From Alphaproteobacteria bacterium (GTDB lineage: Bacteria; Pseudomonadota; Alphaproteobacteria; RF32; CAG-239), in the NCBI GenBank assembly GCA_045637985.1, contig JAZUAM010000020.1, positions 66,379 to 130,378 of the forward strand: a DNA stretch of 64,000 nucleotides. Reading direction: 5' to 3'. Made by a program: the position numbers and the translations under genes. Positions 17,401-33,691 of this stretch are shown here, in pieces. Position 1 is the first letter of the stretch, and the number at the start of each line of letters is the position of its first letter. The notes below the pieces were generated by a model. That model was given only the letters and a program-made list of their open reading frames with translations. It ran no database searches and had not been told where the DNA came from.

Positions 17401-18114
17401 ATGAAAAACAAATATAAAAGAGTCTTGCTTAAGCTTTCGGGTGAAGGTCTTATGGGGGACAAAAGTTTTGGAATATCGCCGGATGTTCTTGCATCATTGG
17501 CATCACAAATCAAAACAATTAGTGATGGCGGAACTGATGTTTGTATTGTTGTCGGTGGCGGAAATATATTTCGCGGAGCCAAAGAAGCTTCTAGAGGAAT
17601 GAACCGTACCGTTGCCGATCAAGTCGGTATGTTGGCTACTCTAATGAATGCATTGTGTTTGCAAAATGCATTGGAAGAGGCCGGTGTTGCTACTCGAGTG
17701 TTGTCCGGTTTAAGTGTGCCGCAGGCTTGCGAAAATTATATGTACAGAAGAGCTTTGCGCCATTTGGAAAAAGGAAGAGTCGTTGTTTTTGCCGGCGGAA
17801 CGGGGAATCCTTATTTTACAACAGATACAGGTGCGGTCTTACGAGCATCGGAAATGCAGTGTGAAGTTGTATTAAAAGCAACTCAGGTTGATGGTGTTTA
17901 TTCGGCGGATCCGAAATCGGATGCAACAGCAAAGCGTTACTCTGAAATAAGTTATGACGAGGTTATTCAAAAACAGCTTAAAGTTATGGATTTAACGGCT
18001 GTTTCTTTGGCGAAAGAAAATAATATTCCTATTATAGTTTTTTCTCAGCATGCAGACAAGTCTTTAGAAAATATCGTGCAGGGAAAAGGTGTTTATACAA
18101 TAATAAAAAAGTAA
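17401..18114 (+). CDS. pyrH: UMP kinase
   Basis: 'KRVLLKLSGE' and 'VVGGGNIFRG'. Confidence 0.93.
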   Translation: MKNKYKRVLLKLSGEGLMGDKSFGISPDVLASLASQIKTISDGGTDVCIVVGGGNIFRGAKEASRGMNRTVADQVGMLATLMNALCLQNALEEAGVATRVLSGLSVPQACENYMYRRALRHLEKGRVVVFAGGTGNPYFTTDTGAVLRASEMQCEVVLKATQVDGVYSADPKSDATAKRYSEISYDEVIQKQLKVMDLTAVSLAKENNIPIIVFSQHADKSLENIVQGKGVYTIIKK

Positions 18115-18126
18115 AAGAGGTAAAAT

Positions 18127-18690
18127 ATGGCTGATTTTTCAGATATAAAAAATGATACAAAAAACAGAATGGATAAAACGTTGGATTCTTTAAAGGCTGA
18201 TTTCGGTTCATTGAGAGCCGGAAGAGCTCATATAAGTTTGCTTGACGGCATTATGGTTGAAGCCTACGGTTCAATGACACCTTTGGCTCAGATCGGAACA
18301 ATCTCTGTTCCTGATGCTCGTACTTTATCTGTTTCTGTTTGGGATAGAGGATTGGCTAAGTCCGTAGAGAAAGCAATTATGGAATCTGATTTGGGGTTAA
18401 ATCCGTCTTCTGACGGTCAATTGATTCGTATTCCGATTCCTCCGTTGTCTGAAGAGCGTCGTAAGGAATTATCCAAAGTTGCAGGAAAATACGCAGAAGG
18501 TTCAAAAGTTGCTGTTCGCAATATTCGCAGAGATGCCATGGATGAAATCAAAAAACTAAAAAAAGACAATGCAATATCTGAAGATGACGAAAAAAGATAT
18601 GAAAACGAAATTCAAAAATTAACAGACGAGGCAACCAAAAAAGTTGATGAAATGTTGGCTCAAAAAGAAAAGGACATCCTTCAAGTATAG
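18127..18690 (+). CDS. frr: ribosome recycling factor
   Basis: 187 aa with 'IRIPIPPLSEERRKEL', located between pyrH and uppS. Confidence 0.92.
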   Translation: MADFSDIKNDTKNRMDKTLDSLKADFGSLRAGRAHISLLDGIMVEAYGSMTPLAQIGTISVPDARTLSVSVWDRGLAKSVEKAIMESDLGLNPSSDGQLIRIPIPPLSEERRKELSKVAGKYAEGSKVAVRNIRRDAMDEIKKLKKDNAISEDDEKRYENEIQKLTDEATKKVDEMLAQKEKDILQV

Positions 18691-18692
18691 GG

Positions 18693-19412
18693 TTGAAAGT
18701 ACTTAAAGTGATAGACAATAAATTAAGACATATAGCCATTATTATGGATGGAAACGGGCGCTGGGCAAAACAACGTGGTTTGCCTCGTTCTGCCGGACAT
18801 AAAAGAGGGGCGGAAACTTTGCAAGATATAGCAAAAACTGTCGCAGATATGGGAATTCGTTATCTTACGGTTTATGCTTTCTCTACCGAAAACTGGAAAA
18901 GAGACAAAGCCGAGGTTGATTACCTTATGGATTTATTGCGTCAATATTTAAAAAGTGAGCTTAAAGAAATTAAGGAGCGTGGCGCCAGAATACGATTCAT
19001 CGGCGAACGAGAAATGCTTGCTCCGGATATTGTTCAACAAATAAACAAAATAGAACAAGAAACATCATCTAACAGCGAATTTACTTTTTGTATTGCGCTC
19101 AGTTATGGTTCAAGAGCCGAAATTTTATCTGCGACCAAGAGGATAGCCGGACGTGTCATCAAAGGTGAAATTTCTGTCGATGAAATTACCGAAGATATTT
19201 TTTCTTCTAATTTGTATACCTCAGATATTCCGGATCCGGATATTCTGATTCGTACCAGCGGAGAACAACGCATCAGTAATTATCTTTTGTGGCAGCTTGC
19301 ATATAGTGAATTATTTTTTACCAAAACATTGTGGCCGGATTTTTCGGCAACCGAATTAAAAGAAATCATTTCAGATTTCCAAACAAGGGAGAGACGTTAT
19401 GGAAAAGTCTAA
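18693..19412 (+). CDS. uppS: undecaprenyl-diphosphate synthase
   Basis: 'HIAIIMDGNGRWA' and 'FSTENWKR'. TTG start as called by the track. Confidence 0.92.
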   Translation: MKVLKVIDNKLRHIAIIMDGNGRWAKQRGLPRSAGHKRGAETLQDIAKTVADMGIRYLTVYAFSTENWKRDKAEVDYLMDLLRQYLKSELKEIKERGARIRFIGEREMLAPDIVQQINKIEQETSSNSEFTFCIALSYGSRAEILSATKRIAGRVIKGEISVDEITEDIFSSNLYTSDIPDPDILIRTSGEQRISNYLLWQLAYSELFFTKTLWPDFSATELKEIISDFQTRERRYGKV

Positions 19413-20208
19413 ATTAAACTCGTTTATAAAAAGAATTGTAAGTAGCTTGGTGCTTATACCGTTAGTGCTTTTAGCCATTGTCGGAGGCTATCCTTCCATA
19501 TTTTTATTGATTCTTTTGGTTGCAGGATTGCTTTCATGGGAGTGGGCAAATATGATTCCCGGAAAACGACAATCTTTTTATGCCGTCTGCTATTTCTTTG
19601 CCGCGGCCACTTCAATATTCATCAAAGAATGGATGATTGTCGGAGCAGTTATTTTGGCTGTTATGGCTTTAGCTTTTTATAAATCCAAAGGCGAAAAAAA
19701 TCGCGGATTTTTATTGTTGGGCATTCCATACATATCTATTGGTATCGGTTCAATAGTATCTATCTATGGTAATTATGGTTATCAAATTGTTTTGTGGTTT
19801 CTTTTTCTTGTTTGGGGCGTCGATATCGGAGGTTATATTTTTGGTTGTTCAATCAAAGGTCCGAAACTTGCTCCTAAAATTTCACCAAACAAAACTTGGG
19901 CCGGTTTAATCGGAGGTATGCTTTTGTCTTCAATTATCGGTTATGGTGTATGTTGGTATTTTGGTGCTTCGGCATGGAATGTTGCAAAGTATTATGTTGT
20001 AATGGCTGCAATTTTAGCTGTAATCGCGCAAATTGGAGATTTAATTGAATCATTTATCAAGCGTCGTTTAAACTTGAAAGATTCCAGCAATATGATACCC
20101 GGTCATGGGGGGATATTTGATCGTATTGACGGACTTATCTTTGCGGCACCTTTCGCATATCTGATGTTAAAATGTTTACCGTATTTAGTTAGTTTAGGAG
20201 TATTTTAA
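19399..20208 (+). CDS. cdsA: phosphatidate cytidylyltransferase
   Basis: Polytopic, with signature 'SFIKRRLNLKDSSNMIPGHGGIFDRIDG'. Confidence 0.9.
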   Translation: MEKSKLNSFIKRIVSSLVLIPLVLLAIVGGYPSIFLLILLVAGLLSWEWANMIPGKRQSFYAVCYFFAAATSIFIKEWMIVGAVILAVMALAFYKSKGEKNRGFLLLGIPYISIGIGSIVSIYGNYGYQIVLWFLFLVWGVDIGGYIFGCSIKGPKLAPKISPNKTWAGLIGGMLLSSIIGYGVCWYFGASAWNVAKYYVVMAAILAVIAQIGDLIESFIKRRLNLKDSSNMIPGHGGIFDRIDGLIFAAPFAYLMLKCLPYLVSLGVF

Positions 20209-21332
20209 TGGATTTTTTGATTAATACTACATACTACGTTGTTCCGTTTTTACTCCTTCTCAGTGTACTGGTTTTTGTTCATGAATTCGGTCACTACATT
20301 GTAGCTAAAATATGTCGGGTAAAAGTTGCCGAATTTTCAATCGGATTTGGCAAACAGTTGTGGGGAAAACAAGATTCTTCCGGAACTTTATGGAAAATCT
20401 CAGCAATACCTTTGGGCGGATATTGCAAATTTTTGGGAGATACCGATGCAGCATCATCGGGTAATGAGGCATCCGAACTTTCCGAAGAAGATAAAAAGTA
20501 TGCATTTGCATTTCAAAATCCATTTAAAAAATTAGCAATAGTTATTGGTGGTCCTGCATTTAATTATTTATTTGCTATCGTCGTTTTTACGGCTATTTTG
20601 TTTTCTTTCGGCAAAATGGATTTTCCGCCTGTTATAGGCAGTGTAATCAAAGGAAGTGCAGCAGAAAAAGCCGGTATCTTGCCTCAAGATAAAATTTTGA
20701 CTGTAGATGGTCGCAAAGTTGAAACATTTAACGAATTTCATCAAGAGATTCAAATGAATACTTCGGGAACGGTAGCACTTGAGATATTAAGGAACGACAA
20801 AAAAATAAAACTTAATGTAAAATTAGAGCTGATTCCTCTGGAAACAGAACTAAATCAAGAACAAAAACCGATGTTGGGCGTAACATCCGTAACCGAGGTT
20901 GAGTTTAATCCGATAAAATTGTCTTTTGTTGAATCCGTAAAAGAGGCTTCAATAAAAACTTGGGATATAACCATGATGACCTTGCGCGGTGTCGGACAAA
21001 TGATAACCGGAAAACGCGGAACAGATGATTTGGGAGGTATTGTTCGCATTGCTGAAATGACCGGCGATATCAGCAAATCAAGTTCGTGGATAGATTTTAC
21101 GATTTTTATGGCTTTGCTTTCAATTAATTTAGGTCTTATAAATCTTTTCCCGATACCATTACTTGATGGAGGGCATGTTGTCATCTACATAATTGAGATC
21201 TTGTGCCGTCGCGAAATTAATGAACAAGTCAAAGAATATATATTCAAACTTGGTTTCTTTTTGCTTATAGCCTTAATGGTGTTAGCAACTTATAACGATT
21301 TTGCCAGATTGTTTAATCGTTGGTTTTCGTAG
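20208..21332 (+). CDS. rseP: RIP zinc metalloprotease RseP
   Basis: 'HEFGHY', a central PDZ-like region and C-terminal 'NLFPIPLLDGGH'. Confidence 0.9.
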   Translation: MDFLINTTYYVVPFLLLLSVLVFVHEFGHYIVAKICRVKVAEFSIGFGKQLWGKQDSSGTLWKISAIPLGGYCKFLGDTDAASSGNEASELSEEDKKYAFAFQNPFKKLAIVIGGPAFNYLFAIVVFTAILFSFGKMDFPPVIGSVIKGSAAEKAGILPQDKILTVDGRKVETFNEFHQEIQMNTSGTVALEILRNDKKIKLNVKLELIPLETELNQEQKPMLGVTSVTEVEFNPIKLSFVESVKEASIKTWDITMMTLRGVGQMITGKRGTDDLGGIVRIAEMTGDISKSSSWIDFTIFMALLSINLGLINLFPIPLLDGGHVVIYIIEILCRREINEQVKEYIFKLGFFLLIALMVLATYNDFARLFNRWFS

Positions 21333-21365
21333 AATAAAATATGTACTTTATGTGGGGTAATATAA

Positions 21366-23624
21366 ATGAAAAAATTGTACTTAGGAACTTTTGCTTTTAG
21401 TCTTTTGGCATCAACAAGCGTTCTTGCTTCTGATGTTTACGTTAAAGATATTCGTGTTAAAGGTCTTCAAAGAGTTGAAGCCGAAACAGTTAAGTCATAT
21501 GTGGAATTCAAAGCAGGACAAACAGTAAGCGAAGAAAAAATGAACTCTTCACTGAAGAATCTTTATGCAACAGGATTATTTGAAGATGTTTCTATTAATA
21601 CAAATGGCGGTTCTGTAATAATTAACGTAAGCGAAAATCCGGTTATTTCTCAGGTTTTGTTCGATGGTAACGACAAAATAGATGATACTATGCTTGAAAG
21701 CGAAATAAGACTTGCCCCACGGTCTACATATTCAAGAGCAAAGGTTCAAGATGATGTTCGTCGTATTTTAGATGTTTACAAACGTAGCGGACGTTATGCA
21801 ACAGTTGTAAATCCGGAAATTATACGTAGAGATCAAAATCGTGTTGATTTGATATTTAACATCGATGAAGGTCCTTTAGCTGTAATTGATAAAATCAACT
21901 TTATCGGTAACGAACACTACTCATCCAATGAACTTCAAGAAGTTTTGATGAGCAAAGAAAGTCGTTGGTATCGTATTTTTTCTTCTTCAGAAAATTATGA
22001 TGCCGAAAAAATTAATTATGATAAAGAGTTGTTAAGACGTTTTTATCTCAAACGCGGTTATGCCGACTTCAGAGTTGTATCTGCCGTTGCAGAGTTAAGT
22101 CCGGACAAAAAATCATTTATGGTAACCTTTGTTGTTGATGAAGGTAAAAAATACAACATTAGCAATGTTGATATTATTTCCGAAATTTCAGATGTAAATG
22201 CAGATGATTATCGTGATTATATTGAAGTCGAAGAAGATGAAACATATAATTCCGATGCAATAGACAAGACTGTAACCCAATTAACTGACGAGCTTGGCAA
22301 AAAAGGATATGCATTCGTAGATGTTACTCCCGAAATAAACAAAGATACGGCTACAGGTGATGCCGGTGTTGTTTTCCGCATCAAAGAAGGCGCTCGTTTC
22401 TTCGTTGACAGAATCAACATAAAGGGCAATACCCGTACTCATGACAAAGTTATTCGTCGTGAATTGCGTATTAATGAGGGCGATGCCTTTAATGCAACAA
22501 AAATAAAAGATTCCAGACGTAATGTCGAAAATCTCGACTATTTTGAAAAGGTTGAAATAAATACCACACCTAAAGACAATAATCGCGCAGACTTAGATAT
22601 TGAAGTAAAAGAAAAATCTACGGGATACTTTAATGTGGGTATCGGTTTTTCAACGGTTAATGGTGCATTAGTAAGAACAGGTATTACCGAAAACAACTTC
22701 CGCGGTCTTGGACAACGTTTAGGGTTTGATGTTGCTGTATCTCAAAAATCACAAGATTTTGATGTCAGTTTTACAGAACCATATTTCTTGAACAGACGTC
22801 TTCGAGCCGGTGTTGATTTATTCCATTCTCGCCAAGATTATCAAGATGAAAGTTCTTATGATAGTCAGGTGACCGGCGGACGTTTGCGTATGGGTTGGAA
22901 CTATACTGATGATTTATCACAACAATTACGTTATACCCTAAAACAAGAAGAAATTACAGATGTTGGAGAATATGCATCTAAATACATTAAATCAGAAAAA
23001 GGAAAATACAATAACTCATCAGTAGGAACAACAATCGCTTATGACAAACGTGATAGCGCCATTCATACTCGAGACGGATATTTCTTATCTCTCGGAACGG
23101 ATGTTGCAGGTCTTGGTGGTGATGAAAAATATTTCAAGTTTGATGGTAAAGCATATTGGTACAAATCATTATATGATTTCTATACATTAAAATTGTTTAC
23201 AAATGCCGGTATGATAGAAGCATACGGCGATGAAACAGTTCGCTTAGCCAACCGCTACTTCTTAGGCGGATATACAATGCGTGGTTTTGAAGCCGGCGGT
23301 ATAGGTGCAAGAGATAAATACACCAATGATGCTTTAGGTGGAAACTGGATGGTTTATTCCGGTGCTGAATTTGGTTTCCCTATAGGTTTGGATGAGCTTG
23401 GTATTTCTGCTCACGTATTCACCGATATCGGAATGATTGGCGAACCGGATAATCTGAATACAAATGACGTATATTATTCAGACAGTCCTCGTGTTTCTGT
23501 CGGTTTTGGTTTCCAATGGATGTCTCCTATGGGACAAATTGATGTTGATTTCGGCTTCCCGATTGTTAAAGAGGACTATGATGAAACAGAAGTATTCCGT
23601 CTAAACTTTGGTACACGTTTATAG
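21366..23624 (+). CDS. bamA: outer membrane protein assembly factor BamA
   Basis: 752 aa with a signal peptide, POTRA-like repeats, a C-terminal beta-barrel region, and the conserved position between rseP and lpxD. Confidence 0.92.
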   Translation: MKKLYLGTFAFSLLASTSVLASDVYVKDIRVKGLQRVEAETVKSYVEFKAGQTVSEEKMNSSLKNLYATGLFEDVSINTNGGSVIINVSENPVISQVLFDGNDKIDDTMLESEIRLAPRSTYSRAKVQDDVRRILDVYKRSGRYATVVNPEIIRRDQNRVDLIFNIDEGPLAVIDKINFIGNEHYSSNELQEVLMSKESRWYRIFSSSENYDAEKINYDKELLRRFYLKRGYADFRVVSAVAELSPDKKSFMVTFVVDEGKKYNISNVDIISEISDVNADDYRDYIEVEEDETYNSDAIDKTVTQLTDELGKKGYAFVDVTPEINKDTATGDAGVVFRIKEGARFFVDRINIKGNTRTHDKVIRRELRINEGDAFNATKIKDSRRNVENLDYFEKVEINTTPKDNNRADLDIEVKEKSTGYFNVGIGFSTVNGALVRTGITENNFRGLGQRLGFDVAVSQKSQDFDVSFTEPYFLNRRLRAGVDLFHSRQDYQDESSYDSQVTGGRLRMGWNYTDDLSQQLRYTLKQEEITDVGEYASKYIKSEKGKYNNSSVGTTIAYDKRDSAIHTRDGYFLSLGTDVAGLGGDEKYFKFDGKAYWYKSLYDFYTLKLFTNAGMIEAYGDETVRLANRYFLGGYTMRGFEAGGIGARDKYTNDALGGNWMVYSGAEFGFPIGLDELGISAHVFTDIGMIGEPDNLNTNDVYYSDSPRVSVGFGFQWMSPMGQIDVDFGFPIVKEDYDETEVFRLNFGTRL

Positions 23625-23636
23625 AGGAGACAATAA

Positions 23637-24650
23637 ATGATAGATAATCGTTTTTACAAAAATAATGGTCCGTTTTCATTAAAACAAATAGCCGAAATTT
23701 GTAATGCCGAATTGGTTGATGACGGCAAATCGAATGTTATGATTAATGATCTTGCCAGCATATACAAAGGTGGTGCAGGAGAAATATCGTTCTTTTTTGA
23801 TAAAAAGAAAAAGGATGCTGCATCATTAATTAAAACTACCGCCTGTATAACATCTAAAGATTTTGTCTCCCTGATACCGGAAGATGTTATTGTTTTGATT
23901 AGTGATAATCCTCACGATAGCTTTGTCAAATTAAACTATGCTATGTATAGTGAGATATTGCCGGATGCAAAAATTTGTGATACGGCGGTTATTTCTAAGA
24001 CAGCCAAAATAGGACAAAATTGCTATATTGGTGACAATGTGGTAATTGGTGACAATGTAGAAATAGGCGACAACTGTCGTTTGGAACCTAATTGTGTTAT
24101 TTATGAAGGATGTATATTAGGTAATAATTGCCGTGTAGGTGCAAATGCCAATATTATGCACGCCATTATAGGTAATAATGTTTATATTTATGGTGGTGCC
24201 AGAATTGGTTGGGATGGATTTGGCTTTAAAACGATTCAAGGACAACACAAACGCATTCCTCAACTTGGTCGTGTTATTATCGGTAACGATGTTGAAATCG
24301 GAGCAAACAGCTGTATAGACAGAGGAGCTTTGGATGACACAATCATAGGTGATGGTTGTCGCATAGATAATATGGTTCAAGTTGCTCACAACGATGTTTT
24401 GGGACGTGGTTGTATTTTGGTAGCTCAAGTTGGTATTGCCGGAAGTTGTACATTCGGTGATTATGTTGTCGCCGGAGGACAAGCTGGCTTTGCTGATCAT
24501 TTAAATATCGGTAGTCAAGCTCAAATCGGCGCACAATCAGGGATTATGCGTGATATTGAACCGGGAACAGCAGTTATGGGAACACCGGCCATAGGTTTTA
24601 GAGATTTTATGAAACAAACGGCTTGTATTCAAAAGTTATGGAAAAAATAG
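23637..24650 (+). CDS. lpxD: UDP-3-O-acylglucosamine N-acyltransferase
   Basis: 337 aa with left-handed beta-helix hexapeptide repeats and the synteny bamA-lpxD-fabZ. Confidence 0.9.
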
Positions 24651-24660
24651 GAGCAAATAA

Positions 24661-25104
24661 ATGGTAAAAACATACAATGAAGAACAAATAAAAGAGATGC
24701 TTCCACATCGTGATCCGTTTTTATTTGTAGAAAAATTGGAAGTTATTGAAGATGGTGTCGAAGGTATCGGCTATAAAAATATAACAATGCAACAAGATTT
24801 CTTTCGCGGACATTTTCCCAACAATCCGATTATGCCGGGAGTAATTCAGATTGAATCAATGGCTCAGGTAGCAGGTTGTGTTGTAATTGAAAATATGCCT
24901 AATTACCAAAATGAAAAAAAGGGTGTATTTTTTATGTCGGTAGATAATGTTAAATTCCGTCATCCTATAGTACCGGATTCATTGCTCAAAATGCACGTCA
25001 AAAAGATTAAAGGACGTGGTAAGGTTTTTGTTTTTGAAGGCAAGACATATGTAAATGATGTGTTGTGTTCCGAGGCCACATTTACCGCAATGATAACCGG
25101 ATAA
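24661..25104 (+). CDS. fabZ: 3-hydroxyacyl-ACP dehydratase FabZ
   Basis: 'LPHRDPFLFV' and 'FRGHFPNNPIMPGV'. Confidence 0.93.
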   Translation: MVKTYNEEQIKEMLPHRDPFLFVEKLEVIEDGVEGIGYKNITMQQDFFRGHFPNNPIMPGVIQIESMAQVAGCVVIENMPNYQNEKKGVFFMSVDNVKFRHPIVPDSLLKMHVKKIKGRGKVFVFEGKTYVNDVLCSEATFTAMITG

Positions 25105-25187
25105 TGTTATAAGATATCCCCAAAAAACATAATATTTTCAAAGGGGGATTGACTAATCCGTCGGGTGAGTGTATAAATATGGTTATA

Positions 25188-25229
25188 GTGAGAAAGTGGG
25201 CGAAAGTTTGCTTTTTCACTATTTTTTTA
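25188..25229 (+). terminator. terminator-like hairpin plus T-run after fabZ (repeat copy 1)
   Basis: gtgagaaag (25188-25196) pairs with ctttttcac (25211-25219) with one G-U pair, then tattttttt. Nt 25203-25228 recur at 26406-26431. Confidence 0.55.
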
Positions 25230-25325
25230 TCTTAAAAAATTTTTTTCAAAACATTTTTTAACCCCATCGTTTGATTTATTAAAACAAATCAAGCGATATT
25301 TAATATTTTTAAAGAAAGGAAAAAT

Positions 25326-25991
25326 ATGAGTATATTCGGACAATATCAAACACCGTTAGGTTATAAAATATCAGAAAACGGAATTGATACTTATGGTGTC
25401 AATCATACAAAATTTTCAATACAAGATGAACTTAATTATCAGTTTGCCCGTGACAAACGAGAAAAACAAATAATCGCAGAGTTAAACAAACAAGGTATTA
25501 CCGATAACTATCCGCAATATGGTACTAACTTTTGGAACCGTCCCTCCGACAACAATTTCGGTTTTGGAGAAGATAATGTTCAAGAAAATATAGAAAAAAG
25601 AAGTAATGTTGTTCAACAACAAAAAACTTTGTATCAAGTCATTGGAGCGACAACCGATATGATTACAGAATATCTTAAAATGAAAAATCACGGATATAAG
25701 TATTTAGATGACTATCATCACTGTAAAGCCAATTATAATGCCGCATCAAGAGGACATTATGGTGAAATTACCGCACAACAATTGGGAGATATTAAGGAAC
25801 AATTTGACTTTTATTGGAATCAATTATACAAGGGAAAGAGTGAACAAGAAGCGATTGATGATAGAACTCACGATTTAGATGTTAATGCAACAGGGCGTTC
25901 AAGGGCTAAATTAAAAATGTACAACAACGCAATGGATGCATGTGCTGATTATCGTTCTAAAAACACCGATTTCCCAAAAAAATACTGGTAA
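25326..25991 (+). CDS. hypothetical protein with serum-amyloid-A-like C-terminal half
   Basis: 221-aa ORF with no signal peptide. 'DMITEYLKMKNHGYKYLDDYHHCKANYNAASRGHYG' and the C-terminal 'FPKKYW' align by eye to my recollection of vertebrate SAA ('[36 protein letters not shown] ... LPEKY'). Confidence 0.6.
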   Translation: MSIFGQYQTPLGYKISENGIDTYGVNHTKFSIQDELNYQFARDKREKQIIAELNKQGITDNYPQYGTNFWNRPSDNNFGFGEDNVQENIEKRSNVVQQQKTLYQVIGATTDMITEYLKMKNHGYKYLDDYHHCKANYNAASRGHYGEITAQQLGDIKEQFDFYWNQLYKGKSEQEAIDDRTHDLDVNATGRSRAKLKMYNNAMDACADYRSKNTDFPKKYW

Positions 25992-26005
25992 GAAAAGGAT
26001 AATAA

Positions 26006-26401
26006 ATGTTTTGTTCAAAAATATCAAAAATATTTAAATACAGTCTAATATCTTGTGGGCTTATCTTTATACTGTGGAAAGCATTCGGTTTTTTAGAACA
26101 GAATGGTTGTTTAGATGATGGTAATGTTTGGGATTATCAAGAGGGACGTTGTAGAAATGATTGTTTAGCCTGGAATAGTATTAATGGTTGTATAAAAATG
26201 AATGCCGAGCAGATTAAAATTTTTGAAGATTGCCGGTATAAACCGACAGGATGTGTTCCGACAAAAGTTTTTAATGAAATATGTCTGAACAATAATCTGC
26301 CGATAAATAAAAAAACGGGAAAATGTGATATTGAATTTACTGTTGATAAATGTAATCAATTAGGAAATGATTGGCTTTATCCTGATATTTGTAAAAAATA
26401 A
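26006..26401 (+). CDS. Cys-rich exported/membrane-anchored small protein
   Basis: 131 aa with an N-terminal hydrophobic segment 'YSLISCGLIFILWKAFGFL', then 10 Cys in ~100 aa. It starts 14 nt after the upstream gene. Confidence 0.55.
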   Translation: MFCSKISKIFKYSLISCGLIFILWKAFGFLEQNGCLDDGNVWDYQEGRCRNDCLAWNSINGCIKMNAEQIKIFEDCRYKPTGCVPTKVFNEICLNNNLPINKKTGKCDIEFTVDKCNQLGNDWLYPDICKK

Positions 26402-26431
26402 TGAAAAAGTTTGCTTTTTTACTATTTTTTT
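26391..26431 (+). terminator. terminator-like hairpin plus T-run (repeat copy 2)
   Basis: gtaaaaaa (26391-26398) pairs with ttttttac (26415-26422), then tattttttt. Nt 26406-26431 are 25/26 identical to 25203-25228. Confidence 0.4.
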
Positions 26432-26626
26432 CTCTCCCTAATTTCTTTCATAAATATCAAACAATCCCCAAAACAATATAGTGTTTTGTGTTGCTAACAA
26501 TCTGAAAAAGCATAATAAATTACGTTTGTAATAATTGTTAAATTTTTGTGTTTTGCCATTAGTGATATAGTTCGTTAAATTACTTTTCAGAAAAGACAAA
26601 GAACTTATATAAGGACTATTAATTTT

Positions 26627-27424
26627 ATGGCTAAAATTCATCCCTCTGCCGTTATTGAAGACGGCGCCCAGATTGCTTCTTCGGCAGAAATAGGCCCCTT
26701 TTGTTGGGTTAGCTCTCAGGCAAAAATCGGTGAAAATGTAAGACTTCTTGCTCGTGTAACTGTTTATGGCGATACCACCATAGGAGATAATACGGTTGTA
26801 TTTCCGGGTGCTTGCTTGGGTACGGGACCACAAGATCACGGTAATGAATTCATTTCGGGAGCAAAGGTTATAATCGGTAAAAACAACGTTATCAGAGAAA
26901 ATGTAACCATTCACGCCGGAACACCAAAAGAACAACAGACTACCATTGTTGGTGATGATTGTATGTTGATGGTTAATTCCCATGTTGCTCATGATTGTGT
27001 TGTCGGCAACCATGTTATTATGACTAATAACGTGGTTATAGGAGGACATGTTCGTGTTGGAGATGGTGCAATTTTAGGTGGTAACTGCGCAGTACATCAG
27101 TTCTGTCGTATCGGACGCAAAGCGATGATTGGCGGGTTAGCCGGTGTCGACAGAGATGTAATTCCTTTTGGTATCGTAACAGGTGAACGTGGCAAGCTTC
27201 GCGGTCTCAATCGTATAGGTATGATGCGCGGTGGTATGGATGAGGCAACAATAAAATCCGTAACACGTGCGTTTATGTACATATTCAAAGGAAAAGAAGA
27301 TAATTTCGAGACACGCCTCGAAAAAGCCAAAACAAAATTTGCCGATAACGAGTTAGTTTTGGAACAAATCAAATTTATTTATGAAGGATTAGCAGGTCGC
27401 CGCAAGGTCATGACTGCTGAATAA
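26627..27424 (+). CDS. lpxA: acyl-ACP--UDP-N-acetylglucosamine O-acyltransferase
   Basis: 265 aa with hexapeptide repeats throughout, start 'MAKIHPSAVIEDGAQI', located before lpxI and lpxB. Confidence 0.9.
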   Translation: MAKIHPSAVIEDGAQIASSAEIGPFCWVSSQAKIGENVRLLARVTVYGDTTIGDNTVVFPGACLGTGPQDHGNEFISGAKVIIGKNNVIRENVTIHAGTPKEQQTTIVGDDCMLMVNSHVAHDCVVGNHVIMTNNVVIGGHVRVGDGAILGGNCAVHQFCRIGRKAMIGGLAGVDRDVIPFGIVTGERGKLRGLNRIGMMRGGMDEATIKSVTRAFMYIFKGKEDNFETRLEKAKTKFADNELVLEQIKFIYEGLAGRRKVMTAE

Positions 27425-27638
27425 CAAAAACGTCAGAATTTGGGTTTTGCCTCAATTCTGACAACATAATTGGTTTAAGAAATTAAATCAATTTTTACAA
27501 AGCTTGATATATGATGTTTTGTATAATGGTAAAAAATGGTCGCCTGTCTGTCTTTCAGACATAAAAAGTCCGCTATTTTAGTTCTGTTATCAAAACTGAG
27601 AAATATCAAGTTTTGTTTTTTTATAGGGATAAATATAG

Positions 27639-28484
27639 ATGAACAATAATTTTCGTAAATTAGGTATTATAGCCGGTGGTGGAAATATTCCACAAAAGTT
27701 GATATCTCAATGTATTCAACAAAACAGAGATTTTGTTGTTTTAGCCATCGAAGGAAACGCCGAAAAAAACTTATTTGATGGTTATAACGTTGAACATAAA
27801 TGGATTAGAATAGGACAAGCCGGTAGCGGTTTTCAATATTTTGCCAAACAAGGTGTCAAAGATGTTGTTATGGTGGGAACAATAAGGCGTCCAAGCTTTT
27901 TTGATTTGGTGCCAGATTTGCGAACTACGGCATTTTTTGCCAAAGTTGGAGCCAAAGCTCTTGGTGATGACGGTTTATTACGAGCAGTAGCTGATGAAAT
28001 AGAAAAAGACGGAATGAAAGTAAAAGGAATACACGAGGTTATGCCGGATATTTTGGTAAAACAAGGAGTATTAACCAAGCGCAAACCATCAAAGCAAGAT
28101 ATTATAGATATCAAACGAGGTGTAGAAGCAGCTTTTGAACTTGGGCGTTTAGATATCGGACAAGCTGTTATAGTTCAACAAGGTTTGGTTCTCGGTGTTG
28201 AAGGTATTGAAGGGACAGATGAATTAATTAGAAGATGTAAAGAATATCGTCGCAAAGGTGGTGGTGGTGTATTGGTAAAGCTTCGTAAACCGCAACAAGA
28301 TATGCGCATAGATCTTCCGACCATTGGACCGCGCTCTGTCGAAAGAGCTCACGAAACAGGACTGGAGGGAATAGTTGTCCACGCCGGCAATGGTTTAATT
28401 GTTGATGAAAAAGAAACCATCGCTTTAGCCGACAAATATAAAATGTTTATTATAGGAGCGAGTATCGATGACTACCTCAAATAA
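27639..28484 (+). CDS. lpxI: UDP-2,3-diacylglucosamine pyrophosphatase LpxI (DUF1009)
   Basis: 'LGIIAGGGNIP' and 'DIGQAVIVQQGLVLGVEGIEGTDELI'. Its position between lpxA and lpxB is the alphaproteobacterial arrangement. Confidence 0.75.
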   Translation: MNNNFRKLGIIAGGGNIPQKLISQCIQQNRDFVVLAIEGNAEKNLFDGYNVEHKWIRIGQAGSGFQYFAKQGVKDVVMVGTIRRPSFFDLVPDLRTTAFFAKVGAKALGDDGLLRAVADEIEKDGMKVKGIHEVMPDILVKQGVLTKRKPSKQDIIDIKRGVEAAFELGRLDIGQAVIVQQGLVLGVEGIEGTDELIRRCKEYRRKGGGGVLVKLRKPQQDMRIDLPTIGPRSVERAHETGLEGIVVHAGNGLIVDEKETIALADKYKMFIIGASIDDYLK

Positions 28485-29634
28485 GTTAAAAGTGTATCTC
28501 ATTGCCGGCGAATCAAGTGGTGATCTATTAGGTTCTCGTTTAATGCGAGCTTTAAGAAAAAAAACAAATAACAATATTGAGTTTTACGGCCTTGGCGGTG
28601 ATACTATGGAACAAGAAGGCTTAAAACCGTTGTTTGACATCTCGGAACTTGCCGTGATGGGGTTGGTAGAGGTCATTCCCAGTATTCCTCGAGTATTACG
28701 CCGCATAAAACAAACCATTCAAGATATTATCAGAAAAAAACCTGATGTTGTTATAACCATAGACAGTTGGAGTTTTTGTAGCAGGATTCATAAAGGATTA
28801 CGTAAACTAAATACAAATATTAAACAAATTCATTATGTTGCACCTCAGGTATGGGCTTGGAAAAAACGCCGCGCCAAAACAATGTATAAATATGTTGATG
28901 AACTTTTGACGTTGCTTCCCAACGAACCGGAATATTTTACAAAACATAATTTAAAAACAATTTTTGTCGGCCATCCGGTAATTGAAAGTGCTGCTCTGAC
29001 AGCCGATGGCAACATATTTCGCAAAAAATATAATATCGACGGCAATAAACAAATCATATCCGTTTTACCCGGTTCTCGTCATAACGAAGTATCAAAATTA
29101 TTACCGGACTTTATTGCTGCAGCTCGTATACTTTACGAACAAAATCCCGATATATTTTTTGCATTACCTACGGTAAAAACTGTTGTTAATCGTGTAAAAC
29201 ATATGATAAAAGGCACTAACTTGCCCATTGCGGTTTTAGAAACAGAAGCGGACAGATATAGCGCTTTTCAAGCTTCTTCTGCAGCCATTGCTGCATCAGG
29301 AACAGTTGCTTTAGAATTAGCAATTTGCAACATTCCGCATATAATAGCTTACAAAGTTTCACCTCTGACGTATCTTATGGCAAAATACTTAGTAAAACTT
29401 CGTTTTGTAAACCTAACTAATATTTTGCTTAAAAGGCTTGTTGTGCCGGAACTTTTGCAAGAAAAATGTACCCCAAAAAACATTGTTTATCATATCAATG
29501 AGTTACTAAAAAACGGAAAAGCTTACGATAATCAGATGCAAGGATTTTCAGAAGCAAAAGATTATTTAAGCAATGGTAGCCAAACCCCAAGTGAAAATGC
29601 CGCCGATGCTATTTTGGATATGTTAAAATGCTAA
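28468..29634 (+). CDS. lpxB: lipid-A-disaccharide synthase
   Basis: 'KVYLIAGESSGDLLGSRLM' and 'SGTVALELA'. Confidence 0.9.
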   Translation: MTTSNKLKVYLIAGESSGDLLGSRLMRALRKKTNNNIEFYGLGGDTMEQEGLKPLFDISELAVMGLVEVIPSIPRVLRRIKQTIQDIIRKKPDVVITIDSWSFCSRIHKGLRKLNTNIKQIHYVAPQVWAWKKRRAKTMYKYVDELLTLLPNEPEYFTKHNLKTIFVGHPVIESAALTADGNIFRKKYNIDGNKQIISVLPGSRHNEVSKLLPDFIAAARILYEQNPDIFFALPTVKTVVNRVKHMIKGTNLPIAVLETEADRYSAFQASSAAIAASGTVALELAICNIPHIIAYKVSPLTYLMAKYLVKLRFVNLTNILLKRLVVPELLQEKCTPKNIVYHINELLKNGKAYDNQMQGFSEAKDYLSNGSQTPSENAADAILDMLKC

Positions 29635-31559
29635 AATTTATTCAAAACTGTTGGCATCAAGACAAAGAACGTCGTTTTTTGTGGCTACCGGTTTTATATG
29701 CTTTGGGTATATCCGTTTATTTTGCGTTTCCCGTCGAACCGTCTAAGTGGTTAACACTAACATTAATCGAAACATTAATATTGTTAGCAATATTATTTAG
29801 GCATCGCATTAACATACTTTATACAATAGGTATATTTGCCATTATTTTAGCCGGTTTTACAACCGTTCAAATAAAAGCGATATGGCTTGATACATCGCAA
29901 TCAAAATTACCGGACGAAACTTTTTATTTTCAAGGACGAATAAGTGCTGTTGATTCCAACTTTCAAGGGCGCAAAAGGTTCATTTTAGATAATCTTACCG
30001 ATTTTGACGGCAATAAATATGTCGGTAAATATCGTGTAACTTTGCGAGGTAAAAATAACGATGCTTCGGTTGGCGATTGTGTTGAGATGGTCGGAAAAAT
30101 AATGCCGCTTTCCAAAGAGGTTGTAATTGGCGGATATCAATTTGACAGAAAAGGTTATTTTGAAGGCCTGAAGGGATCAGGATATGCCGAAAGTCGCTGG
30201 TTTCAAATTGAATGTCCCACTAATTATTCTAAAAAAATAGCAACTCATACGGCTAAGATAAGACAATCAATCGTTAATCATATCAAAAGTGTTCTTGCTC
30301 CAGACGAAGCATCAATTGCTTCGGCAATAATCGCCGGAGAACGTGGTGGCATTGATGAAAACCAATATGAACAATACCGCAATTCAGGTCTTGCTCATTT
30401 TCTGTCAATATCGGGATTACATATGAGTATGTTGGCAGGATTAATGTTTTTTCTGATTCGTTTTATATTAGCGTTAATTCCTGCAATTTCGCTAAGGGTT
30501 GATACCAAAAAAGTTGCATCTGTTTTTGCCATTATTTTAAGTTTTATCTATCTTCTGATTTCCGGCAATGCTGTTCCGGCACAACGAGCTTTCATAATGA
30601 CATTCATTGTTTTGCTTGGCATCTTAACCAATCGTCGCGCAATTTCAATATACACAATATCTCTTGCCGCATTCATTGTTCTTTTTCTGGCTCCCGAGGT
30701 ATTAGTTTCCGCCAGTTTTCAAATGTCATTTGCTGCAGTTTTGGGGCTTGTCACATTTTACGAAAAGTTTTCCGGCAAAATTCAAAATTTTATGAGAGTA
30801 TCATGGTTTCACAGATGGTTTAGGGGAATATTACTTTACATTATCGGAATAGTCATTTCGGATTTCGTAGCTTCGCTTATGACGTTGCCTTTTGCCGTAT
30901 ATCATTTCAATATGATATCAATTTACACTACACTTGGCAACTTTTTGGCAGGTCCTGTTATCGGTCTTATTATAATGCCGACCACATTACTTTCAATGTT
31001 GTTGATGCCCTTTGGTGCCGATACAATATTTTTAAGAGCAACCGGTTGGGGAATAAATTTACTAAATCAAATAACATCTTGGGTATCATCCTTACCGAAT
31101 GCAGGTTATCAGGTTTCGTCGCTACCTCATTGGGGATTAGTGCTGATTGTTATCGGAGGGTTATGGTTGATGCTTTGGCAATGCAAATGGCGTTACTTTG
31201 GTTTATTGGCAATAATCATTGGTGTTTTTAGCATAACAACAGTAAAAGTTCCGGACATTTTAATATCACCGCAAGCCAAGGTTGTTGCTTTTAAAAACAG
31301 TTCCGAAAAGTTAGAAACTGTTTCTTCTCGCGGTGGGCGTTTTGTAAAAGATATATGGCAAAACAAATACTCGGTATCCGAACGCAAAACCAAGTTGAAC
31401 GAACATCCGGAACTACAAATAAATGATGGTAAAATAACCTTTCAAGGTCACTCTCTTGATATTGATAATGATATAGGTTACAGCATATATTTGAACCCCA
31501 AAAAAACAATCATTAAAACCATCCGCAAGGATATAGGCTATCGTCTATGGAACAAATAA
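29628..31559 (+). CDS. comEC: ComEC/Rec2 family competence channel protein
   Basis: 643 aa, polytopic, with 'SGLAHFLSISGLHMSML'. No C-terminal metallo-beta-lactamase motif seen. Confidence 0.75.
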   Translation: MLKFIQNCWHQDKERRFLWLPVLYALGISVYFAFPVEPSKWLTLTLIETLILLAILFRHRINILYTIGIFAIILAGFTTVQIKAIWLDTSQSKLPDETFYFQGRISAVDSNFQGRKRFILDNLTDFDGNKYVGKYRVTLRGKNNDASVGDCVEMVGKIMPLSKEVVIGGYQFDRKGYFEGLKGSGYAESRWFQIECPTNYSKKIATHTAKIRQSIVNHIKSVLAPDEASIASAIIAGERGGIDENQYEQYRNSGLAHFLSISGLHMSMLAGLMFFLIRFILALIPAISLRVDTKKVASVFAIILSFIYLLISGNAVPAQRAFIMTFIVLLGILTNRRAISIYTISLAAFIVLFLAPEVLVSASFQMSFAAVLGLVTFYEKFSGKIQNFMRVSWFHRWFRGILLYIIGIVISDFVASLMTLPFAVYHFNMISIYTTLGNFLAGPVIGLIIMPTTLLSMLLMPFGADTIFLRATGWGINLLNQITSWVSSLPNAGYQVSSLPHWGLVLIVIGGLWLMLWQCKWRYFGLLAIIIGVFSITTVKVPDILISPQAKVVAFKNSSEKLETVSSRGGRFVKDIWQNKYSVSERKTKLNEHPELQINDGKITFQGHSLDIDNDIGYSIYLNPKKTIIKTIRKDIGYRLWNK

Positions 31560-31653
31560 CTATGTATCGATGAGAAATTAAACTTTACATTTTATTAAAA
31601 GTGTGTAATAACTCTTCCCAAAGATAACAAACTACTGATATTTTGAGGGTATC

Positions 31654-32055
31654 ATGAAGAGAGTTTTAACATACGGAACATTTGATGTATTACATTACGG
31701 ACATATCAATCTCTTAAAAAGAGCAAAAGCTTTAGGGGATTACCTTATCGTCGGGCTTTCCAGTGACGAATTTAATAGAATAAAAAATAAAAAATCTTTT
31801 TATACATACGAACAAAGAAAACTCATTCTTGAAGCATGTCGTTATGTTGACCTCGTAATCCCTGAAGATAATTGGGAACAAAAGGTTAACGATGTAAAGC
31901 AATATAATGCAGATGTTTTTGTTATGGGAGATGATTGGGCTGGAAAATTTGATTTTTTGAAGGACTATTGTGAAGTTGTATACTTACCGAGAACTCCGGA
32001 TGTTTGTTCAACCAGTACAAAGCAATATCTTTATTCATTAGAAAAAGTAGCTTAA
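31654..32055 (+). CDS. tagD: glycerol-3-phosphate cytidylyltransferase
   Basis: 133 aa with 'VLTYGTFDVLHYGHINLLKRAK' (HxGH nucleotidyltransferase). Confidence 0.85.
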   Translation: MKRVLTYGTFDVLHYGHINLLKRAKALGDYLIVGLSSDEFNRIKNKKSFYTYEQRKLILEACRYVDLVIPEDNWEQKVNDVKQYNADVFVMGDDWAGKFDFLKDYCEVVYLPRTPDVCSTSTKQYLYSLEKVA

Positions 32056-32109
32056 ATAGAAGATTTAATCACAAATTTTTATTGATTTTATCTGAGAAGG
32101 GGTTCTTAA

Positions 32110-33039
32110 ATGTTTCGTATTGAAAAAAAGAGCGATTGCAAAGAAGTATACCTGTTTGGCAAAAAGCTGTTCAGCATCAATAAGTACTCCAACGCGACAT
32201 TATTAAAAAAAATTGACAGTTTGCAGTCTGTTATTCAGTTTACTTTCAATACCGAAGATATGAAAAAGGCGAGGGGAACACTTCGCGATATTCAGCTTGC
32301 CGAATTAAAAATATTAAAAGAAATAAAGCGCGTTTGTTCTCAAAACAACATTACATGGTGGATAGATTTCGGAACTTTGCTTGGTGCAGCTCGTCACAAA
32401 GGTTTTATTCCTTGGGATGATGACATTGATATTTGTATGATGCGCGATGATTTTGCAAATTTCATCGATATTTTCAACAAACACACTTCCGACAAACATC
32501 TCAAAGCCGGTTTGTACACATCAGACAGTGGCATCTACAATATGATAAAAGTATCGCATCAGGAAATACCCAATTTGTTTATCGATATTTTTCCTGTTGA
32601 TTTGCGTTATCAAACTATGGACGATGCCCAAAAGCTTGATTTCAGCAAAAAGCTTCGCGCCCAAGTTTTAAAAAATGCCAAACTGAAAAAGAAAAGCAAA
32701 ACACCTGAAGAATTTTTCGAAAAAATTATACAATCACGCAACGAAACCATAAGCAATCTGAAGCCGAACAACAAAATTACAAAACCGACAATTTTTTATG
32801 GTCTCGAATATTATCATTCCACCCATTTGTATAATGCTTTTGATTATGATACAATTTTTCCTTTGCAAGATATCGAGTTTGAAGACGAAATGTTCCCATC
32901 TGTTGCCAAACCGGATTTATATTTGACATACACATTTGGTGATTATATGCAACTTCCCAAAATTTTACATATTCACACTAATATGAAAAAGATGCCCATC
33001 GACAATATCATCAAGATAAAAAAATATGTTTCCGAATAA
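32110..33039 (+). CDS. LicD family phosphotransferase
   Basis: 'WWIDFGTLLGAARHKGFIPWDDDIDICM' and 'IDIFPVD'. Confidence 0.75.
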   Translation: MFRIEKKSDCKEVYLFGKKLFSINKYSNATLLKKIDSLQSVIQFTFNTEDMKKARGTLRDIQLAELKILKEIKRVCSQNNITWWIDFGTLLGAARHKGFIPWDDDIDICMMRDDFANFIDIFNKHTSDKHLKAGLYTSDSGIYNMIKVSHQEIPNLFIDIFPVDLRYQTMDDAQKLDFSKKLRAQVLKNAKLKKKSKTPEEFFEKIIQSRNETISNLKPNNKITKPTIFYGLEYYHSTHLYNAFDYDTIFPLQDIEFEDEMFPSVAKPDLYLTYTFGDYMQLPKILHIHTNMKKMPIDNIIKIKKYVSE

Positions 33040-33042
33040 CTG

Positions 33043-33075
33043 CAAAAAAAACCGCCTTATATGGCGGTTTTTTAT
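33043..33075. terminator. bidirectional terminator between licD-like and hxlR-like genes
   Basis: accgcc (33051-33056) pairs with ggcggt (33063-33068), with an A-run before and a T-run after. Confidence 0.65.
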
Positions 33076-33097
33076 AAAACACAACACAATATACAAT

Positions 33098-33439
33098 CTA
33101 AGCCAAATTCTCGATTCCCAACAACATATTTTCACGATATTCGGCGCCCCAAGCAACCATCGATTCGATAACAGGCTTCAAAGCATAGCCGACGGCGGTC
33201 AAAGTATACTCAACACGAGGCGGAATCTGAGCATAGACTTCACGGATAACTAACCCTTTTTCTTCCAATGTGCGCAAGTTAGAAGTCAAAACCTTTTGCG
33301 TAATATCGCCCAAAGATTTTTTTAACTCGCCAAAACGTTTTGTTCCGTCCATCAAATTTTGAATAATTTGCATCTTCCAACGATCACCAATCAATTTAAC
33401 GGTCATCTCAGCCAAACATTTTTGCACATCATCAATCAT
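33098..33439 (-). CDS. HxlR family transcriptional regulator
   Basis: 113 aa with 'RWKMQIIQNLMDGTKRFGELKK...ITQKVLTSNLRTLEEKGLVIREVYAQIPPRVEYTLT'. Confidence 0.85.
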   Translation of the reverse strand: MIDDVQKCLAEMTVKLIGDRWKMQIIQNLMDGTKRFGELKKSLGDITQKVLTSNLRTLEEKGLVIREVYAQIPPRVEYTLTAVGYALKPVIESMVAWGAEYRENMLLGIENLA

Positions 33440-33466
33440 TAAAAAAAACTCCTAAAAACCGCAAAA

Positions 33467-33481
33467 ATACTACAATAGTAT
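33467..33481. promoter_or_regulatory. perfect palindrome upstream of the hxlR-like gene (candidate operator)
   Basis: atacta-caa-tagtat, located 28 nt upstream of the regulator's start codon. Confidence 0.3.
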
Positions 33482-33659
33482 CCTCGGGGAAACTATAGCA
33501 CCTGCAAGTGCTTACTTTACTTTTCTATCAGAACAGGATTATAAAATCAATATAAAACGCAAACTTAATCATACATTTTAATATAATCAGAGCTTTTTAT
33601 ACAAGTTTTAAGGACGCAGGCTCCGATATTATTATAAAAACACACACAATACAAAAAAG

Positions 33660-33691
33660 CCTTTAATCTTTTCTGGATTAAAGGTTTTTTT
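33660..33691. terminator. orphan terminator-like hairpin in the hxlR/tarI intergenic region
   Basis: cctttaatc (33660-33668) pairs with gattaaagg (33676-33684), with an A-run before and a 7-T run after. No annotated gene ends here on either strand. Confidence 0.45.

Follow-up and report, generated by a model that had tools for sequence, protein, structure and literature searches.

The 64-kb stretch of alphaproteobacterial DNA analysed here (the window) carries two short genes between fabZ and lpxA of an lpxD-fabZ-lpxA-lpxI-lpxB operon for lipid A: a putative toxin gene, open reading frame (ORF) 25326-25991, and its candidate immunity gene, ORF 26006-26401. An earlier interpretation of this DNA from its letters alone (the sequence-only reading) had given the first gene exactly this position and had placed it inside the lipid A operon, and both hold. 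The toxin ORF starts with ATG downstream of a Shine-Dalgarno-like AAGGA, and its 221-residue product contains neither a transmembrane (TM) segment nor, as that reading had already stated, a signal peptide. The second ORF begins 14 nt beyond the toxin stop codon.

The C-terminal part of the toxin (its tip) is a genuine homologue of serum amyloid A (SAA), a resemblance that the sequence-only reading had noticed and that our searches confirmed. We found that the Pfam profile for SAA, PF00277, matches toxin residues 103-199 over profile positions 5-93 of 102, scoring 52.5 bits where the gathering cut-off is 30.8 (E=7.2e-14). When the toxin was compared with the PDB sequences by phmmer, SAA chains were the only matches (mouse SAA2, 6dso, E=3e-7; human SAA1, 4ip8, E=2e-4), and a profile built from 39 bacterial homologues recovered SAA chains at E=1e-16 and no others. 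Against human SAA1, 26 of 91 aligned columns are identical (~29%); the core segment singled out earlier, DDYHHCKANYNAASRG, is identical to the human SAA1 segment at 9 of 16 positions, and NATGRS aligns with NEWGRS as had been suggested. The SAA domain lies at residues ~95-212, where the AlphaFold2 model, made from the alignment of the 39 homologues, has a predicted local distance difference test (pLDDT) score of ~90 and consists of four helices (95-121, 128-140, 144-167 and 173-196) plus a short fifth (202-212). In a Foldseek comparison with the PDB, the best seven matches to this model were SAA3 or SAA1 crystal structures, at probability 1.00 and target TM-scores of 0.73-0.83, and the eighth had E=2. 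The tip therefore shares its fold with animal SAA (human SAA1 4ip8, mouse SAA3 4q5g/6py0), and mouse SAA3 with bound retinol is among its structural matches.

Across the 39 homologues of the tip, H132, E158, D161, D183 and N187 are invariant, and so across homologues are the cysteines C133 and C206. H132 in helix 2 and E158 and D161 in helix 3 match the clade and active-site motifs published for the Lipocone superfamily (PMC12419801), and helix 4 carries the sNxxGR motif as V186-N187-A-T-G190-R191. H132, E158, D161 and N187 are the predicted catalytic positions. The motifs Y-x-H, NY-AA-RG, a Glu in helix 3 and N-x-x-G-R-S are common to the tip and animal SAA. The animal protein differs in that it is ~104 aa long, stands alone, is secreted and has a signal peptide; it has neither an N-terminal delivery module nor an immunity partner, and human SAA1 contains no cysteines.

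The Lipocone superfamily was defined by Burroughs, Nicastro & Aravind (eLife 2025; PMC12419801), and its SAA-Wnt (SAW) clade contains a prokaryotic family, prok-SAA, whose domains are the toxin tips of polymorphic toxins. The same paper predicts that active Lipocone members cleave off or exchange lipid head groups joined through a phosphate, as in the action of TelC on lipid II, and infers that early Metazoa, before the cnidarian split, obtained SAA from bacteria. The contexts that it lists for prok-SAA are the type VI secretion system (T6SS), MuF, a metallopeptidase-vWD-Ig architecture, PGBD fusions and a C-terminal 'broken-hairpin' domain (PMC12419801). The toxin described here belongs to this already described kind of toxin. 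The prok-SAA supplementary table of PMC12419801 contains MBE6453833.1, which is P0016, the allele of this very locus in L001, a contig of the same species; it also holds domains sequence-identical to the tips of P0008, P0024 and P0010. The window tip is 68-70% identical to the table entries MBP5215000.1 and MBR6408927.1 and at most 30-35% identical to Met-SAA, and 15 bacterial domains outscore the best metazoan SAA (30% identity, 48.9 bits). A phylogeny of bacterial and metazoan sequences, made as an unbootstrapped neighbour-joining tree, places the tip among bacterial sequences, with the metazoan SAAs apart. By sequence comparison, the tip is thus closer to the catalogued prokaryotic members than to metazoan SAA. 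It also stands outside Met-SAA in being C-terminal in a 221-aa protein without a signal peptide and in grouping with bacteria. Bacterial SAA had reportedly been described earlier, by Zamocky and Ferianc in 2023, as cited by Burroughs et al. 2025.

The remainder of the toxin is a second conserved unit. Its first ~94 residues match nothing in Pfam, NCBIfam or PHROGs, which agrees with the sequence-only reading, where no domain had been recognised in this region. The segment is not featureless, however, but forms a strongly conserved module (the N-module). Near-invariant positions are D21, Y23, G24, V25, H27, F30, D34, E35, Y38, Q39, R42, E46 and G57, together with Y62, P63, Q64, F69, W70, N76, N77, Y78, G79, F80 and G81. 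The AlphaFold2 model shows a short beta region (~15-26), a helix (32-55) and a Gly/Asn-rich linker of low confidence, and no relatives of the module beyond chance level were found in Pfam, NCBIfam, PHROGs or the PDB sequences. A homologue search with the whole toxin returned 109 relatives, all from metagenomes or metagenome-assembled genomes (MAGs) labelled Alphaproteobacteria. By BLASTP, ~20 of these are full-length, another ~20 align only over residues ~95-221 and have unrelated N-termini, and ~55 align only over residues 1-94 and have unrelated C-termini. With residues 1-95 as the query, phmmer gave 214 matches, counted at the 50%-identity cluster level, among 1.84 billion cluster representatives; in nearly all of the matches listed, the module occupies residues 1-94 of proteins ~150 to 740 aa long. 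A scan of GTDB species representatives confirmed 191 loci of the family. The records listed are nearly all gut or rumen MAGs labelled Alphaproteobacteria or Proteobacteria (two carry other labels), from human, yak, deer, sheep and horse samples.

What follows the module is highly variable. Among 110 members, the tips recognised by Pfam are GH108 (13, of which 7 with PG_binding_3), SAA (7), Tlde1 (6), a VgrG3-like C-terminal muramidase (3), YkuD (2) and pesticin (2); there are weak single matches to SLT, phage lysozyme and GH46 (E 3.6e-4 to 5.6e-4), and more than half of the members have a tip without a Pfam match. Most of the recognisable tips are thus directed at the periplasm or the peptidoglycan, as enzymes that attack the cell wall, and nuclease-type tips are essentially absent from these members. 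Several paralogues occur per genome, with at least five in BRZ_CI__bin98 and at least four in RGIG4780. Multiple paralogues that share an N-module and differ in their tips are the signature of a polymorphic effector family, and a conserved N-terminal region joined to highly variable tips is what we observe here, in keeping with the polymorphic toxin definition of Zhang et al. 2012, as summarised in PMC12419801.

Two other identities for the module or the family were considered and rejected. The broken-hairpin trafficking domain of some prok-SAA proteins is C-terminal and occurs without immunity partners, and is therefore a different thing from the N-module. A phage origin is not supported, as a search of 2.9 million viral contigs gave no family member and the locus is not bordered by phage genes. 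In the available portions of the text and supplements of PMC12419801, the 94-aa module is not mentioned, and Tlde1, GH108, pesticin and Alphaproteobacteria do not occur as terms; the module and the gene that recurs upstream of it (described below) thus appear to be previously undescribed. As a separate observation, by eye, residues ~85-105 of P0033 (249 aa), which precede its SAA tip, carry DPNCYIEFDGRNV, close to the start of the Tlde1 domain of P0087, DPNCYVEFDGNNV; this segment looks like a scar of tip displacement by recombination.

Displacement of the tip can be seen directly at this locus. The contig that carries P0016 (L001) is syntenic, gene for gene, with window positions 15328-35081. 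Blastn aligned the two DNAs at ~92% identity up to 25598 and again from 26393, and nothing aligned between these points. The first breakpoint falls at codon ~91, at the end of the N-module, and the second 8 nt before the stop of the 131-aa ORF. Accordingly, the two alleles are 97.8% identical in the N-module (89/91) and 30% identical in the tip (34/113). The tip in L001 is of a different prok-SAA subfamily ('DKYKHAYINC'; subfamily B, the tip of the window being of subfamily A), and after it a small TM ORF takes the place of the 131-aa ORF. These data demonstrate that the tip and the downstream ORF are exchanged as one unit between strains, and that recombination between close strains replaces the tip at a single locus, a further property of polymorphic toxins. 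At least 18 further loci carry subfamily-B tips ('DKYKHAYxNC', including P0016/MBE6453833.1), and at least seven of them also have a small ORF (~50-75 aa, with one TM segment) after the tip, its start overlapping the last ~40-80 nt of the toxin gene. This small ORF likely represents a second immunity family.

The partner of the tip in the window, ORF 26006-26401, has features expected of an immunity protein. Its product has a Lys-rich N-terminus followed by a hydrophobic helix, from which an N-in, C-out topology is predicted, and 10 cysteines are invariant across all nine of its homologues. In the AlphaFold2 model (pLDDT 87), a TM helix (2-37) precedes four strands (41-64) and then short helices. 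Foldseek found no fold match to this model in the PDB, and NCBIfam, PHROGs and the PDB sequences gave only chance-level matches. The Cys-rich ORF lies directly 3' of a subfamily-A SAA tip in 11 of 13 loci, whether that tip is joined to the N-module or to one of several short alternative N-termini. Because it follows this tip type whatever the N-terminus, we consider it the likely cognate immunity protein of the tip. In the remaining loci, L008 and L009, it is one of several small ORFs strung together 3' of a Tlde1-type member. Of 65 complete family genes, 43 are followed within 250 nt by an ORF on the same strand, and 32 of these 43 ORFs begin with a hydrophobic segment. A downstream gene thus co-varies with the tip, as in other polymorphic toxins, and it is from this pattern that an immunity function is likely.

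The product may also be compared, by description only, with the published Imm-SAA domain, in which an alpha-helix and four beta-strands, held together by four conserved cysteines, come after a TM anchor (PMC12419801). Position and context fit, and the model has a TM helix and then four strands, which together contain C35, C49, C53 and C62. There are, however, six further invariant cysteines, 10 here versus 4, and extra helices. We also noted that in L008 (2654-5684) five small same-strand ORFs (118, 127, 129, 91 and 95 aa) come after the Tlde1-type member. One of them is homologous to the Cys-rich ORF, and no SAA toxin is encoded nearby; the strings in L008 and L009 look like orphan-immunity arrays.

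To place the pair in its operon, we measured the fabZ-lpxA interval in 80 metagenomic loci with FabZ relatives. Most bacteria have a gap of 0-20 nt. Among the nearest sister lineages (L129, L094 and L095; FabZ 73-88% and LpxA 84-92% identical to those of the window), the gap is 191-273 nt and contains no gene, so that the toxin gene is absent there. It measures 1262 nt in L001-L004, which are of the same species as the window, and 1523 nt in the window itself. The sister contigs align with the window up to ~25104-25114 and again from ~26460-26526, and delimit a lineage-specific insertion of ~1.35 kb. Elsewhere, paralogues and orthologues adjoin unrelated housekeeping genes (aspS, rpsI, TPR proteins and similar). 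Because the slot is empty in the sisters and family members lie elsewhere among unrelated genes, the location in the lipid A operon is a chance insertion and offers no clue to function.

Within the insert, a consensus scan detected a 17-pair hairpin stem followed by TTTTTTATCT upstream of the toxin gene, and there is a second terminator-like hairpin at 25266-25297, also between fabZ and the toxin gene. Should these hairpins be functional, lpxA would be cut off from the upstream operon and would depend on a promoter of its own, for which there is a candidate at 26553-26581. The fabZ-lpxA slot of a more distant lineage, L099, holds unrelated ORFs of 189 and 291 aa (3118-4589), and the slot may be a recurrent insertion site. 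Coordinates of the features are collected in the table.

Features of the probable toxin-immunity locus and of related loci. Positions are those of the window, or of the named contig where one is given.
Feature	Position	Strand	Basis or remark
Toxin gene (N-terminal module + prok-SAA tip)	25326..25991	+	221 aa; PF00277 match; 109 homologues
Conserved N-terminal module, aa 1-94, presumed trafficking/delivery domain	25326..25607	+	Sharing among homologues and conservation
prok-SAA (Lipocone) toxin tip, aa 95-221	25608..25988	+	Pfam, PDB sequence search, model, Foldseek, tree
Candidate immunity gene	26006..26401	+	131 aa; predicted TM anchor and periplasmic domain; own Shine-Dalgarno-like AAGGA
Strain-variable cassette (tip + downstream ORF)	25599..26392	+	Unrelated 533-bp cassette instead in syntenic strain L001
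Lineage-specific ~1.35-kb insertion with toxin-immunity pair and its upstream region	25115..26460	.	Sister-lineage alignment
fabZ, upstream flank	24661..25104	+	PF07977 FabA on syntenic L001 gene
lpxA, downstream flank	26627..27424	+	Hexapep + Acetyltransf_11 on syntenic L001 gene
Terminator-like hairpin + T-run, within insert, 5' of toxin gene	25185..25222	+	Consensus scan, pattern match only
Subfamily-B tip + small TM ORF	L001 10274-10806; also L020, L026, L033, L040, L067, L073, L075		
ACC162 examples	L013 1871-2332; L051 2440-2898; L066 2440-2898	+	

We then considered how toxins with the N-module might be delivered. In 77 family loci, the only recurrent neighbours were immunity-like ORFs and a gene that we call ACC162. 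By tblastn, ACC162 is found in 27 fetched loci and not in the window, and in 19 of 21 clustered loci it lies directly upstream of, and co-directional with, the N-module toxin gene, with any tip type. It encodes a conserved ~155-aa protein without a TM segment, with the C-terminal motif KLNQLAQANNREFKK. No relatives were found in Pfam, NCBIfam or the PDB, and none of the known adaptor families matches it; a weak XRE-type helix-turn-helix match is present in two versions with an N-terminal extension (L024 and L034). ACC162 may be an adaptor or chaperone for the N-module, or a regulator.

Comparison with known systems suggests two candidate routes: a secretion-system loading signal with ACC162 as the adaptor, or a colicin- or pesticin-like import domain. 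The T6SS marker families (MIX effectors and those dependent on DUF4123 or Eag adaptors) likewise join a conserved N-terminal marker to variable tips, including Tlde1 and VgrG3-like muramidases, with multiple orphan effector-immunity pairs per genome and, in many loci, a small conserved upstream gene (here ACC162). They differ in that nuclease-type tips are common among them and essentially absent from the N-module family, no T6SS gene was found in the window or near the members examined, and ACC162 resembles none of the known adaptors. Pesticin and colicin M are also small and Sec-independent, with a conserved N-terminal region, then a Gly/Asn-rich unstructured stretch, an interchangeable C-terminal domain that acts on peptidoglycan or lipid II (here predicted) and an immunity gene immediately downstream, and a pesticin-type tip occurs in the N-module family. 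The differences are that the N-module showed no sequence or profile similarity to the translocation domains of colicins and pesticin, including the solved ones, and that there is no lysis gene here. The conserved D21-T/S-Y-G-V25 of the module loosely resembles the TonB box, DTMVV, and the Gly/Asn-rich linker loosely recalls the colicin translocation region; we regard the TonB-box resemblance as a lead only. We tentatively suggest that the N-module, often with ACC162 upstream, could be a previously undescribed delivery system, specific to gut and rumen Alphaproteobacteria and reserved for periplasm-acting toxins, whose cargo would comprise peptidoglycan hydrolases, Tlde1-type enzymes and lipid-directed prok-SAA tips; we are slightly more inclined to doubt this suggestion than to accept it. 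If it is true, the two-gene cassette would offer a minimal and tractable means of identifying the long-sought biochemical activity of the SAA fold.

Within the Lipocone superfamily, the present pair has its closest counterparts in the other prok-SAA toxins. It shares with them the domain itself (a four-helix cone with a short fifth helix, sNxxGR, and the conserved His, Glu and Asp/Asn) and the arrangement, in which the toxin tip is C-terminal and the next gene encodes an immunity protein with a TM anchor and cysteines; it differs from them in its 94-aa N-module with Tlde1, GH108 and pesticin-type sister tips, which the available portions of PMC12419801 do not describe. The only experimentally characterised Lipocone toxin-immunity pair is TelC/TipC of Streptococcus intermedius, in which TelC cleaves lipid II (PMC12419801). 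It resembles the pair described here in combining a Lipocone-fold tip that acts outside the cytoplasm (here predicted) with an extracytoplasmic, membrane-associated immunity protein, and TelC serves as the template for the cleavage of a phosphate-linked lipid head group predicted for the window tip. TelC differs in belonging to another Lipocone clade and to a Gram-positive bacterium, in its delivery by a type VII secretion system via an LXG domain, and in the unrelated fold of its immunity protein, and no detectable sequence similarity between TelC and the window tip was demonstrated.

Together, the homology and fold of the tip, the modularity of the family, the cassette swap, the co-occurrence of tip and immunity gene and the insertion lead us to conclude that ORF 25326-25991 and ORF 26006-26401 probably form an inter-bacterial, polymorphic-type toxin-immunity pair of a gut or rumen alphaproteobacterium. 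There is good support for inferring that this antibacterial module acts in the periplasm, because the sister tips act on the cell wall, the immunity candidates have a TM anchor and extracytoplasmic domains, and both tip and immunity protein have invariant cysteines; C133 and C206 in the tip and the 10 cysteines of its partner fit an oxidising, periplasmic site. We propose that the N-module, common to many effectors, would mediate export from the producer, entry into the target, or both. The tip, which retains the predicted active-site residues on its helical cone, would then attack, from the periplasmic side of a competitor, a membrane lipid or an undecaprenyl-linked cell-wall precursor at its phosphate-linked head group, by analogy with TelC; possible substrates are lipid II, an undecaprenyl-pyrophosphate (Und-PP)-linked intermediate or a membrane phospholipid. 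That the tip severs or exchanges such a head group is suggested by the literature only. In the producer's own periplasm, the membrane-anchored and presumably disulfide-rich downstream protein would neutralise its cognate tip. The pair entered the fabZ-lpxA intergenic region in this species, and recombination between strains swaps tip and immunity gene as one cassette.

Several points weigh against this interpretation. None of the known trafficking domains (PAAR, VgrG, RHS, LXG/WXG, MuF, TPS/FHA or a signal peptide) was found in the toxin with Pfam, NCBIfam, PHROGs and the PDB sequences. No secretion-system genes, including T6SS core, Hcp, VgrG, PAAR and known adaptor genes, were found in the 64-kb window, the rest of which consists of housekeeping and envelope-biogenesis genes, or in the 3-10 kb flanks of other members; our literature search found nothing on secretion systems in RF32-type gut Alphaproteobacteria. 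In a crude scan, ~22 of the 65 family genes had no obvious downstream ORF. The neighbour-joining tree is rough, resting on a domain of ~100 residues and unbootstrapped. In the literature, no prok-SAA protein has been characterised experimentally, and catalysis is the prediction of one paper together with the TelC analogy.

One alternative is a toxin that is not an enzyme, in which the SAA-like bundle would bind or sequester lipids, or form a pore or channel in the inner membrane of the target, in the manner of pore-forming colicins with their membrane-bound immunity proteins. Animal SAA binds lipids and retinol, and bilayer channels and inhibition of bacterial growth have been reported for it. 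The retinol complex of mouse SAA3 among the structural matches and the predicted membrane anchor of the candidate immunity protein are in keeping with such a mechanism. We nevertheless regard it as unlikely: the invariant residues H132, E158, D161, D183 and N187 of the tip are polar and located at the predicted active-site aperture, not on a hydrophobic face, and the immunity protein is mostly a soluble, Cys-rich periplasmic domain, which suits a soluble toxin. The published tables, moreover, give the domain a low hydrophobicity (PMC12419801).

The position between fabZ and lpxA might instead point to a housekeeping envelope factor that binds or modifies the cell's own lipid A, lipopolysaccharide (LPS) or outer-membrane lipids, and in the abstract of PMC12419801 several Lipocone families are indeed proposed to function in outer-membrane and LPS biogenesis. 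A role of this kind, which the sequence-only reading had derived from the operon, is very improbable. A conspecific strain has a tip only 30% identical at this position, the nearest sister lineages have no gene in the slot, which in L099 holds unrelated genes, and homologous pairs lie among unrelated genes; a terminator-like hairpin separates fabZ from the toxin gene, the same N-module bears peptidoglycan hydrolases and Tlde1 elsewhere, and the protein lacks a signal peptide or TM segment with which to reach the envelope. Of the lipid- or LPS-binding role put forward in that reading, a lipid-directed activity remains plausible; the tie to the operon fails, given the ~1.35-kb insertion and the exchange of the cassette between strains. 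The same reading had also raised eukaryote-to-bacterium transfer and host mimicry. It is true that the organism comes from animal guts and that the domain is recognisably SAA. A recent acquisition from the host, with mimicry of serum amyloid A (e.g. for immune modulation or binding of high-density lipoprotein), is nonetheless so improbable that we set it aside: identity to metazoan SAA is ~30%, 15 bacterial sequences score higher, and the tip nests in the bacterial family, within the diversity of prok-SAA; the domain is joined to a bacterial toxin-delivery module in a protein that lacks a signal peptide and has an immunity gene as its partner. The published direction of transfer, before the cnidarian split, is also the opposite one (PMC12419801).

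As an inter-bacterial toxin-immunity pair, the locus bears on a wider question. SAA is a major acute-phase protein in humans, and its primary biochemical function is debated. Bacterial SAA toxins with dedicated immunity proteins support the published idea of an ancient lipid-head-group enzyme fold that animals co-opted for immunity (PMC12419801). The locus is a very compact test case for this idea, with a 127-residue tip ~29% identical to human SAA1 and a 131-aa antidote, and hence a compact system for the proposed enzymatic function of the SAA fold. It also adds a clean natural example of the displacement of a tip together with its immunity gene, and an N-terminal delivery module that, like the gene associated with it upstream, appears not to have been described before. 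The common N-module indicates that gut and rumen Alphaproteobacteria, which are poorly known, possess a sizeable and recombining arsenal against the cell envelope of their competitors. For annotation, the lesson is that the place of the gene in the lipid A operon is an artefact of insertion and says nothing about function.

Some further features of the window were recorded. The gene for LpxI (PF17930/PF06230 on the syntenic L001 gene) lies at 27639-28484, between lpxA and lpxB; comEC follows the lipid A cluster, and dprA lies upstream of it on the opposite strand. L001 contains an extra gene, at 17993-19198, for a 403-aa FadL/Toluene_X-type outer-membrane protein that is absent at window ~33583-33593, a second strain-level insertion or deletion within 8 kb of the toxin slot. 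Two long ORFs on the + strand, 53002-55848 (948 aa) and 58807-60459 (550 aa), are without a Pfam match. Finally, a zeta-toxin/AAA_33-like ORF of 231 aa (57110-57805, - strand) is located between two tRNA genes at 56018-56090 and 58153-58225 (- strand).

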